The notes under the pieces are model-generated. The model had not been told where the DNA came from. It ran no database searches and saw only the letters and a program-made list of their open reading frames with translations. The translations under genes were made by a program, and so were the position numbers. 64,000 nucleotides of DNA from Botryllus schlosseri (Eukaryota): NCBI GenBank assembly GCA_051294905.1, contig CM119371.1, positions 35,712,001-35,776,000 on the forward strand, read 5' to 3'. Numbering within the stretch: the stretch's first letter is position 1; each line of letters starts with the position of its first letter. Positions 46,915 through 63,989 of this stretch are shown piece by piece.

Positions 46915-47409
46915 ATGAAATTATTGCGAGTATCACCTGCGCTCACTGAAGAAAAGGATGAAATTATATCCACGGCATATTCCTTAGCTAGAAATTTTAT
47001 CATGTATGAAATCGACGGCTCAAGCGTTAAAGCAAATACGCAGGTGGAGAAAACCTTACGACGAGTTGTTACTGAAATATTTGAGCGATATCGAACTATC
47101 CTAAACGCAGTCTCCAAGCGCCTTCGTTATAGTGAAGTCAATGAGAAATATAAAGAACATTCACCCATTGAGCGAATGTTCCTGATGATAGCCGATGAAA
47201 TATACAAAGATAGTCAAGAAAATTGGGGTCAGATTGTGTCTCTTTATGTGCTTGGCGGCATTCTTGCTCGCAATAACGAGGCTGCGCATAACGGCAGGGA
47301 TATAGATGCTATCATACAGACACTCGGGAATTACATTGCTACTAAAAAACGAAAGTGGATAGAACAAAATGGCGGATGGAGGCATTTTGTCATGTGGTAT
47401 CACTTATAA
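46915..47409 (+). CDS. Bcl-2 family protein (viral Bcl-2-like), about 164 aa, no C-terminal membrane anchor
   Basis: BH1-like ENWGQIVSLYVLGG and BH2 WIEQNGGW; probable start ACCATG at 46915 (ORF track starts at TTG 46888). Confidence 0.88.
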   Translation: MKLLRVSPALTEEKDEIISTAYSLARNFIMYEIDGSSVKANTQVEKTLRRVVTEIFERYRTILNAVSKRLRYSEVNEKYKEHSPIERMFLMIADEIYKDSQENWGQIVSLYVLGGILARNNEAAHNGRDIDAIIQTLGNYIATKKRKWIEQNGGWRHFVMWYHL

Positions 47410-47446
47410 AAGCTCGATCGCAGTTACTATTTGTTATATTTACATC

Positions 47447-47746
47447 ATGGGCTCCGTGCGAATAAATGCTTGTAAGTTTATTGGATCCAAGGCCGTATCA
47501 TGGATAGTATATTCGAAATGTATGAAGATGGTTGGTGTGGATGTAATGGAAATATCGTATCCTTTCACTATACTAGAATGTGAAGGATGTAATTATACAG
47601 AGCTGCTAGCATGTGATCAAGACGAAAGAAAAACAATGAAGATATACGATACTGAAGTAACGAAAGAAGAACATCGAGTTGTTTTTAAGTCAACAGCAAC
47701 AGTAGAACTATCTCATAAATTTGCTAATGCTACTGCTCAAAACTAA
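47447..47746 (+). CDS. Hypothetical protein, about 99 aa, one CxxC
   Basis: Fills the space between the Bcl-2 gene and tRNA-Ala; first non-overlapping ATG at 47447; no family recognised. Confidence 0.5.
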   Translation: MGSVRINACKFIGSKAVSWIVYSKCMKMVGVDVMEISYPFTILECEGCNYTELLACDQDERKTMKIYDTEVTKEEHRVVFKSTATVELSHKFANATAQN

Positions 47747-47769
47747 CATTTAAGCCGTCGCTATCGCTT

Positions 47770-47841
47770 GGGGATTTAGCTCAGCGGTAGAGCAGCTGTC
47801 TTGCAAGCAGAAGGTCACGGGTTCAATTCCCGTACTCTCCA
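47770..47841 (+). tRNA. tRNA-Ala(TGC): tRNA-Ala(UGC)
   Basis: 72-nt cloverleaf; G3:U70 alanine identity pair; anticodon loop CTTGCAA; A and B boxes present; T6 terminator at 47845-47850; no encoded CCA tail. Confidence 0.9.
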
Positions 47842-47910
47842 CTCTTTTTTCCGTTGAAGTGCTAATGACGCAAAGGTGGCGCAATCATTTCAATTTGATT
47901 ATCACTCAGA

Positions 47911-48381
47911 ATGTGTGCTTTGAAAAGACTGTGTTTCGAGCGAGAAAAGTTTCGGAATTGTTCTGATTCTACTATCAAAGCGGGACCGATTGACGAATCG
48001 AATCTATTTAGTTGGTGGGCAACAATTGAAGGACCCCAAGGAACGCCATACGAAAAAGGAGTGTTTAAAATATTAATAGAATATCCCACAGAGTATCCGT
48101 TTCGACCTCCGAAGATGAGATTTGAAACTCATATATTTCACCCGAACATTAGTGTGAAAGGCACTATATGCGTGGATATTTTGCAGAAGCAATGGTCACC
48201 AGCGCTAACTACATCAACTGTGCTGCTATCAATATCTTCGTTACTTGGCGCACCAAATCCAAATGATCCTATGAATGCGGAAAGTGCACATCTCTATCTG
48301 GAAGATAGACAACTCTACTTTAAACGCGCTCAGCAATATACCGAACGCTATGCCAGAGTCAACTGCGATTTGTCAGCGTGA
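47911..48381 (+). CDS. Ubiquitin-conjugating enzyme E2 (UBE2D/E-like), 156 aa, intronless
   Basis: GPQGTPYEKGVF, YPFRPPK, HPN motif and active-site Cys (HPNISVKGTICVDIL), WSPALT, PNPNDPMN. Confidence 0.96.
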   Translation: MCALKRLCFEREKFRNCSDSTIKAGPIDESNLFSWWATIEGPQGTPYEKGVFKILIEYPTEYPFRPPKMRFETHIFHPNISVKGTICVDILQKQWSPALTTSTVLLSISSLLGAPNPNDPMNAESAHLYLEDRQLYFKRAQQYTERYARVNCDLSA

Positions 48382-48571
48382 TTACAATTATTAAAACTAT
48401 CATTTGCTTGTGACTTGTTTATGCCTTGTAAATATTAATTGTGGAGCCCCACCTTTGTAATAAAAAAACTCCATAATGTGTCTTTGTTGGTTATATGAAA
48501 AAATAGCGCGAGTTAGTGATTTATTGGCGAAAGATTATTGCACTGATCTGATGCAACTTGACTTGTGCGCT

Positions 48572-48643
48572 GATTCGTTGGTCTAGGGGTATGATGCTCG
48601 CTTTGGGAGCGAGAGGTCCCGGGTTCAAATCCCGGACGAATCT
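48572..48643 (+). tRNA. tRNA-Pro(TGG): tRNA-Pro(UGG)
   Basis: Body near-identical to metazoan tRNA-Pro; acceptor stem GATTCGT/ACGAATC fully paired; anticodon loop TTTGGGA; T4 at 48647-48650. Confidence 0.93.
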
Positions 48644-48696
48644 GCATTTTGCTACTATCTAATGCGCCTCAAACACACCCGAACACGAGTCAGTGA

Positions 48697-48702
48697 TTTA
48701 TT
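48697..48702 (-). terminator. Poly(A) signal AATAAA overlapping the stop of the 48698-49015 ORF
   Basis: Minus strand CAA TAA A; ends the MCP-protease block. Confidence 0.6.
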
Positions 48703-62125: not shown

Positions 62126-62145
62126 TCAGAGAAGACGCCGAGGTC

Positions 62146-62180
62146 TATAAAACCACAGTAGCTAGTGCATAATTTCAGTT
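62146..62180 (+). promoter_or_regulatory. TATA box plus initiator upstream of the BIR gene
   Basis: TATAAAA at 62146-62152 and TCAGTT at 62175-62180, about 31 bp apart; ATG at 62194. Confidence 0.65.
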
Positions 62181-62193
62181 CTATTCAAGAGAC

Positions 62194-62580
62194 ATGGAAA
62201 AGATCAAGCCGTGCGGAACGCATCAATCAATAAAGAATTCCGAGGGCGAAATACTATATGAACCTTGTGATTTATTAAATCAACCCGTCTTTCGTAAAAT
62301 GAATTTCGATAGACGCTTGCAATCATTCGAGTCTCATAAAGAGAATTTCAGAGTTAGTGCATTTGAACTCGCGACTTGTGGACTATTCCACTTAGGATTC
62401 AACAATCACGTCAAGTGCTACATTTGTGGTCAATTGTTTGATAACTTGACAAATTGTACAGATGTCTGGAGCGAGCATGCTAGACTCAATCCTTCCTGTC
62501 CTCTGATCATGAAATTAGCAAAGGATTCTAAGTTCTTTCGCAACGTGCTTATTCGTATACCGCATAGCAGTTTTCGTTGA
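62194..62580 (+). CDS. Single-BIR inhibitor-of-apoptosis-like protein, 128 aa, no RING
   Basis: RRLQSF...ELATCGLF...VKCYICG; exact C-X2-C-X16-H-X6-C zinc ligand spacing. Confidence 0.9.
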   Translation: MEKIKPCGTHQSIKNSEGEILYEPCDLLNQPVFRKMNFDRRLQSFESHKENFRVSAFELATCGLFHLGFNNHVKCYICGQLFDNLTNCTDVWSEHARLNPSCPLIMKLAKDSKFFRNVLIRIPHSSFR

Positions 62581-62589
62581 ATCTTTAAT

Positions 62590-63168
62590 GTGTGTATTTT
62601 TTGTTTAGATCGAATCATGTCTATAGCAATTAGAGCCGAGTCGCAACTCCCAGAAGGACCTCTTCGGAAAGACATTTACATTTTCAATAACATATCGAAG
62701 CTTCGAATCGAAACTGCAGACGATCAGCTGATTGATCCTCGACAAGTACGTGTGTTTCCAACGAATGGCGCAATTCAACGATTCAAAGCAAGTTTAACTC
62801 ATAATGGGAAGCTCGTTGCGTGTTACACTCGAGAAGGTATCGAATACTTTCAGCAAATCAATCTCGCTGATGAATATATATTATATTCTCCGTCGAACGT
62901 CGTCGATGACGTAGAAAATTCACCGCTGGGGTGGATTTTACAAGAAACATCGCGTTACATTGCGCCGAATGGTCAAATACAGCCTATGGATCGCGCTAAA
63001 GCGGGATTTCCAAATGGTTATGGTAACTTTGCTGGGTATTCGAATGGTGGGATGCCGAATGCCAATGCAAGTTTCCGGAATGCTGGCAATGCTACTGGAG
63101 CCTTTCCAAATAGCAATACGCAATACGGCAATCGCAGATGGATGCCAAACAATTCTCAGCAATTTTGA
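62590..63168 (+). CDS. Hypothetical protein, 183-192 aa, with Gly/Asn/Phe/Tyr-rich low-complexity tail
   Basis: Long ORF; alternative start 62617 after an acceptor-like TTTTTTGTTTAG; AATAAA at about 63226. Confidence 0.75.
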   Translation: MCIFCLDRIMSIAIRAESQLPEGPLRKDIYIFNNISKLRIETADDQLIDPRQVRVFPTNGAIQRFKASLTHNGKLVACYTREGIEYFQQINLADEYILYSPSNVVDDVENSPLGWILQETSRYIAPNGQIQPMDRAKAGFPNGYGNFAGYSNGGMPNANASFRNAGNATGAFPNSNTQYGNRRWMPNNSQQF

Positions 63169-63304
63169 ATTGTCTCGGAAGCGCGCTCAATGCGATATCA
63201 ATTGTTTTATTGCTATGTGAGTGGAAATAAAAGCTTCCTGTGATTATGATTGTTGTGTTCGATGATTTTCAGTGCTGATAGACTTATATCAAGATAGCAT
63301 ATGA

Positions 63305-63377
63305 GGTAATTTAATTGCTCAGCCCTGTAGAGCAGCTTTGTGTTTATAAGCAGGTCACTCAAGTTTAGTACTCTCCG
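63305..63377 (+). pseudogene. Decayed copy of the element's own tRNA-Ala gene
   Basis: Collinear blocks GCTCAGC, GTAGAGCAGCT, AAGCAG, GTCAC, TCAA, GTACTCTCC shared with 47770-47841; anticodon and B box destroyed. Confidence 0.6.
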
Positions 63378-63704
63378 TAGAGGTTATTGCACAATCTATC
63401 TCTAATATGCTGCAATACAGACAGGTTCAGACGTGTCTATTCACTTCCGTCGAGTGACTTTTATAACACATTTTACACAATCACATGAGCAGTTTATTAA
63501 TAACCAACAAGCACATTTACTAATCGTTCAGAACAAGGCGTAGAGCTTCTTTGAGATCTTGGCACACTTTCTTGATATCAGAATCCTTTTTTTGATTTGC
63601 AATGTAAAAGCAATAACAGTTTCGCATAGATGAGCATATGATTACGAATAAACCGATATTGAAGTCTTCTGAGAGCATATTCACTAGTCCGCGCAATTCT
63701 GCTC

Positions 63705-63989
63705 TTAGTACGTTATGTCTTTCAGAGCATTTGAATTGCTATTCGAAGGTATCTGACAGCTGTGAACTAATTCTTCAAGTTTGTTCATCGTAGCGTAACG
63801 ACCATTTTTACGAATCCATAACTGTATCATTTGATATCGTTGCTCAGTTAAGTTATAGCAATCCATGTATTGACATTCGGCAATTTCATTGTCAGATAGC
63901 TCAAGTTTTTCACGTGCAAACCTATACCAGTTCATCAGGTCAATTCGATCCATTATGACGTATATATCATTAGCAGTAATCTTTGACAT
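63705..63989 (-). CDS. Death-domain-only protein, about 94 aa (frame stays open to the window edge)
   Basis: WYRFAREKLELSDNEIAEC...LTEQRYQMIQLWIRKNGRYATMNKLEELV fits the FADD/RIP-type death-domain pattern. Confidence 0.85.
   Translation of the reverse strand: MSKITANDIYVIMDRIDLMNWYRFAREKLELSDNEIAECQYMDCYNLTEQRYQMIQLWIRKNGRYATMNKLEELVHSCQIPSNSNSNALKDITY

Follow-up and report, generated by a model that had tools for sequence, protein, structure and literature searches.

Homologues of Bcl2 and IAP are described as accessory genes of adintoviruses (Starrett et al., 2021, PMC8502044; this and the other papers named below are cited for the part of their text that was available), and a general remark on anti-apoptotic genes has been made elsewhere (10.1101/2024.03.25.586562). 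An element of this type, a Polinton of 17,882 bp, lies in the genome of the ascidian Botryllus schlosseri. It starts at position 46643 of a 64,000-nt stretch of the 495-Mb assembly (C1:35712001-35776000, hereafter the window) and ends 524 bases beyond the window's end. Near its ends it carries three compact genes, each a single open reading frame (ORF): an anchorless Bcl-2-family gene, a BIR gene without a RING, and a gene for a lone death domain (DD). A first-pass annotation had placed these genes correctly, and all three are above the Pfam cut-offs; its estimate of about 20 kb for the element was too high. Its statement that Bcl-2 and IAP genes are known in some adintoviruses agrees with Starrett et al.

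The likeness to adintoviruses and animal Polintons or Mavericks is one of gene content, and takes in a candidate polymerase, an rve integrase with a chromodomain, the ATPase, the protease, the capsid, terminal inverted repeats (TIRs) and a 6-bp target site duplication (PMC8502044). In the supplement of that paper Bcl2 (at least three mentions) and IAP (at least two) label maps of different hosts; in the available part of its text, the maps being figures, 'death', 'caspase', 'BIR', 'Ubc' and tunicate names are not mentioned. The present locus differs in that a single element combines three modules, two of which have their donor genes in the same genome. Vertebrate Mavericks are likewise about 17 kb long, with (AGT)2//(ACT)2 ends and accessory regions that flank the core (Barreat and Katzourakis, 2021, PMC8097293). 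In the Botryllus element, by contrast, the core genes all lie on one strand, and the available part of that paper names no Bcl or apoptosis cargo; nor is such cell-death cargo named in the available parts of coral and nematode Polinton papers. The viral Bcl-2 proteins of large double-stranded DNA viruses and adenovirus E1B-19K are also short, host-derived Bcl-2 folds (PMC11209288), whereas the capture described here is recent, the donor intron persisting in relatives; Polintons and adintoviruses are unmentioned in the available text of that review. Among the listed papers on Polintons and apoptosis, none concerns such cargo by title or opening of the abstract, and none of those listed on palindromic non-autonomous Polintons bears on it. 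A search whose coverage stopped short of subscription journals and Repbase turned up neither a DD-only Polinton gene nor a Bcl-2/BIR/DD trio. Bcl2 and IAP cargo is already known; what is notable here is a traceable candidate for a caspase-prodomain decoy and a visible path of gene capture.

Prodomain-type decoys are familiar from other settings, among them the human CARD-only proteins COP, INCA and ICEBERG, the viral FLIPs, which carry DEDs, and the poxvirus PYD protein M013. What they share is a death-fold module that was copied on its own from a caspase or an adaptor, and dominant-negative decoys are usually reduced in this way to the interaction domain. The CARD-only COP and INCA and the viral DED- or PYD-only decoys follow the same logic as the DD decoy proposed below; the module here, in contrast, is a DD proper, and its source a caspase whose prodomain is a DD. 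The available text of two papers on caspases describes CARD and DED prodomains and DED-DED-DD forms, and no lone-DD prodomain (PMC11121540, PMC7836458).

We favour, at a probability of roughly 0.6, the reading that a mobile element of Polinton/adintovirus type keeps its host cell alive by means of cell-death modules stripped to their interaction domains. The origin of the Bcl-2 and DD genes, their co-occurrence and the selection on them can be read from the data set out below; the biochemical steps are ones that we infer. The DD-only protein would be a dominant-negative copy of a prodomain, which joins the DD platform that activates the donor caspase and supplies no protease. The soluble Bcl-2 would sequester pro-death BH3 proteins, weakly or with altered specificity, and the BIR would be a protein-binding decoy with its partner site outside the classic peptide groove. 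The cargo would be retained since survival of the host cell benefits the element.

The death-domain gene and its host donor

The DD-only gene (63705..63989, minus strand; Pfam Death, E 2.6e-11) encodes 94 aa in a single ORF. Outside the elements, it is matched most closely in the genome by the N-terminus of a 554-aa ORF in a single exon (L049 4837-6501) with Death and Peptidase_C14 domains; this ORF belongs to a tandem cluster on C8 and has its catalytic His and Cys motifs in place. The alignment begins at Met1 and covers residues 1-75, of which 45 (60%) are identical. Resemblance to the host goes no further than the folded domain, and in three element families it stops, at the level of DNA, near host codon 74. 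A search of 1.84 billion proteins gave 23 matches. At their head stood a DD-only protein with 94% identity, and the three places after it went to DD-caspases, which made up 8 of the 23 overall, three of them named from the ascidian Styela clava. Since DD-caspases recur among the matches, including those from Styela clava, the donor belongs to a cellular gene family.

Phylogenies against host paralogues, proposed with the first-pass annotation, were run for both the DD and Bcl-2 genes. A tree restricted to 18 rows, the element DDs and the DD-caspases, omits 12 others (receptor, adaptor and other DDs and two near-duplicates); in it the elements and one host gene form a clade (95/99) nested among the DD-caspases. 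Judged at the level of sequence, the source of the DD-only gene is the prodomain of a single DD-caspase of the host, and the gene lacks the protease domain, as expected of a decoy. An origin from an NLR was rejected, the donor carrying a caspase domain. The decoy of death receptors or innate adaptors that had been envisaged at first gives way to a decoy of a caspase prodomain; this is the best reading of the gene, whose product probably jams the donor caspase.

An AF2 model of the protein (pLDDT 82.9) has the death-domain fold, with the DDs of TNFR1 and FADD as best Foldseek matches (E 2.7e-3, TM ~0.68); there was no match to it among predicted viral structures (BFVD). A homologue search for longer DD-bearing proteins returned none, but a slower search recovered DD-caspases, so that the blank in the faster search is put down to limited sensitivity. 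A viral decoy points to the antiviral pathway of its host, and here it would single out one member of a little-studied cluster of ascidian DD-caspases and offer a testable way into cell-autonomous death as an antiviral response in the invertebrates most closely related to vertebrates. The cluster (C8:2.35-2.40 Mb; L049, L050, L094, L095, L111) consists of host caspase genes in tandem, each a single exon; five have a DD prodomain, and in L095 the catalytic His and Cys are missing.

Selection on the cargo was estimated among near-identical copies of the window element (family A) and between these and other copies. The DD gene is the most constrained accessory gene measured (pN/pS 0.07, P < 0.0001; 11 synonymous and 3 replacement variants in 9 copies), with a dN/dS of 0.25 to a diverged family-A copy, and pN/pS indicates purifying selection on all three cargo genes. 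These values bear on the view that the cargo is passenger DNA, host fragments acquired at element ends whose decay is still pending. The terminal position of the genes, the loss of BIR from some copies and one comparison in which Bcl-2 approaches neutrality (both given below) would fit that view, whereas within-family pN/pS of 0.07-0.36, cross-family dN/dS of 0.12-0.40 where synonymous sites are unsaturated, and the restriction of DD-host likeness to the folded domain stand against it. It is very improbable for the cargo as a whole, and for DD and BIR it is already largely refuted.

The Bcl-2 and BIR genes

The Bcl-2-family gene (46915..47409, plus strand; Pfam Bcl-2, E 1.3e-18) is a single ORF of 164 aa, with an in-frame ATG upstream at 46891. 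As first described, it has no hydrophobic tail (peak 17-residue hydropathy in the last 30 aa of -0.53, compared with 1.98 for the host anchor exon) and reads NWGQ in BH1. Pro-survival Bcl-2 proteins typically have the Arg of NWGR, and a C-terminal membrane anchor is frequent among them without being universal. NWGQ is, however, no hallmark of the family: Gln results from a one-base difference in 7 of 11 family-A copies, the window's included, and the remaining 4 have Arg, as do the host gene and sister elements. The idea that NWGQ marks the whole family was given up in favour of a recent change in a sub-lineage.

The single best cellular match, among the candidates scored in two genome searches with Bcl-2 (150 of 416 and 150 of 355), is an Mcl-1-like gene on C14. 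An exon of this host gene ends at the BH2 Gly-Gly-Trp and is followed by a 184-base intron and a membrane-anchor exon; the best 60 of its 145 PDB matches are Mcl-1, A1, Nrz and Bcl-2, all pro-survival. In a tree with three unnamed proteins as outgroup, the element genes all group together (100/99) and this host gene is their sister (100/98). The likeness extends into the upstream intron of the host gene, the element start codon lying just inside the old exon start. Outside family A, in family C and in palindromes, 25 of 26 full-exon copies keep the anchor exon, and GT/AG splice sites were present in all 8 examined. Since intron likeness persists and relatives retain the anchor exon, the capture was from genomic DNA, from host to element, and the source is the host Mcl-1-like gene. 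The short tail of the family-A Bcl-2 may stem either from the intron or from the spliced exon. Gene capture is here visible in progress, with the donor, intron-bearing intermediates and the stripped viral form in one genome.

Selection on the family-A Bcl-2 persists but is weaker (pN/pS 0.36, P 0.017; dN/dS 0.39 to family C). The proposal that the gene is dead was discarded on the first of these values. A single-sequence fold model was too poor for use (pLDDT 47.8), and a scan of IMG/VR with Bcl-2 gave no match.

The BIR-only gene (62194..62580, plus strand; Pfam BIR, E 1.7e-11) is a single ORF of 128 aa. A TATA-like box lies 48 bases ahead of its start, and a tandem repeat with a 91-bp unit (61905..62126, no strand) is found upstream. 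The zinc ligands CX2CX16HX6C are intact and the N-terminal extension is conserved. Its best single-domain match is XIAP BIR2, whose NWEPCD aligns to NLTNCT, with Trp and Asp replaced; the Trp and the acidic residue of this stretch we take to be the caspase/Smac peptide groove. Families C and D retain both residues, in NWLPCD and DWLPSD. The family-A BIR is strongly conserved despite its non-canonical groove (pN/pS 0.09, P 0.0014; dN/dS 0.16 to the diverged family-A copy), which points to a change of partner and not to decay. The genome yielded no host donor, candidate cellular BIRs being only 31-38% identical, and a homologue search with the BIR gave zero matches. The following gene, an ORF of 183 aa to which no function is assigned (62617..63168, plus strand; pN/pS 0.28), adjoins BIR in the examined copies of families A-D; an Atlas search with it gave no usable match.

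As read from their motifs, the Bcl-2 and BIR prongs of the window element are non-canonical. The modules might instead tune innate-immune signalling or promote death, the DD acting as a nucleator and the BIR as a scaffold with the UBE2D-like E2 that the element also encodes. Strong constraint on a non-canonical BIR groove and weakened Bcl-2 motifs are in keeping with such roles, as is the presence in families B and D of a caspase-like protease whose His and Cys are intact. On the other hand, the Bcl-2 donor resembles pro-survival members, and truncation to bare domains in three families fits the familiar pattern of dominant-negative decoys; we regard these roles as quite unlikely.

Family A, sister families and palindromic satellites

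The genome contains 12 capsid genes that are 97-100% identical. Cargo was counted in 11 full-length family-A copies, namely the window element and 10 others in which both terminal regions were examined; a rearranged twelfth was excluded. Bcl-2 and DD are present in all 11, E2 in 10 and BIR in 8, so that the complete trio is found in 8 of 11. All 10 copies with both ends read have perfect 6-bp target duplications (the ends of the eleventh were not located), and family A has therefore moved recently. The trio co-travels on a mobile Polinton. The notion of an apoptosis-blockade cargo in the first-pass annotation holds in this respect, as it does for the host origin of Bcl-2 and DD and for purifying selection; the role that it gave to the DD needs revision, and that of the BIR is doubtful. 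Alignment of a BIR-less copy showed a deletion from the BIR start codon to shortly before the following gene; this loss is derived, because sister families keep BIR beside the 183-aa ORF.

The excluded element (C15:11059686-11077672, L013-L015) has an inverted copy of the left end in place of its right end, and carries two Bcl-2 genes, no BIR and no DD. The diverged family-A copy has a fragment of the DD gene (L081 3013-3102) inside an extended terminal repeat at the left end.

Several observations weigh against the reading that the cargo protects the host cell. With all 30 rows in the DD tree, the support for the clade of elements and host gene is only 88/78, and a long-branched receptor/adaptor group falls inside it. 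A lone DD could also seed the assembly of a caspase instead of blocking it. The Bcl-2 of family A has lost the intron, the anchor exon (present in 0 of 13 gene copies) and the BH3 Gly-Asp, and its dN/dS of 0.78 to the diverged family-A copy is indistinguishable from neutral (bootstrap 0.30). Bcl-xL R139Q, the equivalent of NWGQ, is reported, in the available text, neither to bind Bax nor to promote survival (PMC6148235). That the family-A BIR inhibits caspases directly, as proposed at first, is doubtful, given that the groove residues kept by sister families are absent and that 3 of 11 copies, each an independent insertion, lack the gene through deletion; with E2 missing from 1 of 11 as well, the cargo set is therefore not essential.

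A survey of capsid genes at 65% identity or more gave 71 loci in four families, with 26 rows at 33-34% identity and 2 second fragments excluded; the 26 rows represent a distant further capsid family. BIR matches (the best 71 of 133) lie within 18 kb of 62 of the 71 loci, and DD matches (the best 102 of 145) within 18 kb of 25. Among the stretches examined and the scored Bcl-2 candidates, the complete trio was seen only in family A. The examined stretches of families B and D have DD, BIR and the caspase-like protease, together with an E2 in B and a three-BIR IAP in D; the examined copies of family C have BIR and an intron-bearing Bcl-2, which in L051 (4985-8697) and L107 (4692-9001) takes the place of most of the polymerase gene.

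The caspase/metacaspase-like protease of families B and D, of 241-246 aa (L056 6870-7610, plus strand; L064 5983-6708, minus; L110 4626-5351, plus), matches Peptidase_C14 with E 2.4e-13 and 5e-10. In family D it adjoins the three-BIR IAP, which has no RING (L064 4727-5941, minus; L110 5586-6779, plus). A three-BIR-RING IAP occurs with an E2 and an LRR gene in a gene-dense, multi-copy stretch (L057 6936-8630 and L058 375-830, both plus); about 25 similar frames of 555-583 aa exist genome-wide.

Most Bcl-2 and DD matches in the genome sit in inverted pairs outside full elements. Among the best 102 of 145 DD matches, 76 lie more than 18 kb from any listed capsid gene, and of these 76, 61 are paired. 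Of 11 palindromic units measured, 4 have AGTAGT/ACTACT ends and 6-bp duplications, 4 abut N gaps and 3 have complex or unresolved ends; two further DD-bearing pairs are palindromes with AGTAGT/ACTACT ends. The pairs are whole palindromes, and the idea that Bcl-2 lies inside long TIRs of gene-bearing elements was discarded. Four whole-element palindromes with Polinton ends and 6-bp duplications (C6:9987515-10003282, C13:15325263-15341028, C14:23370069-23396393 and C1:3645197-3665905) have a Bcl-2 with its intron on both arms; those read at the centre have a short loop there. Two sets of palindromes on C9 border on N gaps and are possibly duplications made by the assembly; ends were taken from other units, and the Bcl-2 copies of the two sets are included among the 26 above. 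In some palindromes (L019, L025, L026, L028, L029) a tRNA-Leu(TAA), 86% like that of the window, lies about 500 bases upstream of Bcl-2. The element family suggests that high counts of Bcl-2, BIR and DD genes in such genomes can reflect element cargo, not host paralogues.

This amplification of cargo in capsid-less palindromes, together with the spliceable anchor exon of the Bcl-2 copies outside family A, would suit a cargo that serves the life of an integrated transposon, and not an infection that makes virions; germ or stem cells would survive DNA damage caused by the integrase, or repeat stress, and carrier cells would gain an edge. However, both the capsid and the protease gene have open frames under strong conservation (dN/dS 0.13 and 0.10), and the satellites may hold cargo merely by having arisen from element ends, the satellite DD deriving from the right end of family A. 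We consider this account unlikely, though less so than passenger DNA or immune tuning. A wider proposal is tentative, with the odds still against it. The DD-only gene would be a viral decoy of a caspase prodomain, of the DD class, and would thereby identify one DD-caspase of tunicates as a trigger of antiviral cell death, and Polintons and palindromic satellites would pool captured death regulators as a multipartite anti-death system, the satellites retaining the spliceable, anchored Bcl-2 that family A trimmed.

Core genes, E2, tRNAs and flanks

The element has the hallmarks of Polintons/Mavericks in its TIRs with AGTAGT-type ends, 6-bp duplication, rve integrase and ATPase; the protease and capsid rest on weak matches (E 0.0079 and an Atlas lead). 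The left copy of the target duplication, GGTTTC, is at 46637..46642 (no strand), its right copy lying beyond the window. The left TIR, which begins AGTAGT, occupies 46643..46884 (plus strand); its partner is at L011 1283-1524, equivalent to window positions 64283-64524, and the two, ending in AGTAGT/ACTACT, are alignable over about 242-243 bases at 97.5%.

The core genes are all on the minus strand. They include a maturation cysteine protease (49433..49885), with a weak match to ASFV S273R, and a candidate double jelly-roll major capsid protein (49882..51159), whose Atlas score of 0.98, below the tool's recognition threshold, is to clusters with PF21738 in 24-30% of members. Two mutually related ORFs of 249 and 273 aa (51556..53123) have a putative minor-capsid role, assigned from position. 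Next come an rve integrase with a C-terminal chromodomain (53280..54293; Pfam rve, E 2e-13, and Chromo) and a packaging ATPase (55178..55909; Pox_A32, E 8.5e-10). The open frame of 1309 aa at 55803..59732 is a candidate family-B DNA polymerase; it gave zero profile matches, and what we take to be the exonuclease and polymerase motifs occur in order by pattern. An ORF of 413 aa (60205..61446, minus strand), common to sister families, and a conserved ORF of 125 aa (47369..47746, plus strand; pN/pS 0.18) have no function assigned.

The E2 and tRNAs of the first-pass annotation are indeed on the element, and may be unrelated to cell death. The E2 (47911..48381, plus strand; Pfam UQ_con, E 1.9e-48) is UBE2D/UbcH5-like, with a borderline pN/pS of 0.42 (P 0.056). 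The tRNAs, all on the plus strand, are tRNA-Ala(TGC) at 47770..47842, tRNA-Pro(TGG) at 48572..48643 and tRNA-Leu(TAA) at 61740..61823. In the left flank (42628-46160), repeats rich in GACTCGAGTC-type words surround an ORF of 236 aa and what is probably a decayed transposon, and a stretch of similar kind recurs about 12 kb beyond the window's end.

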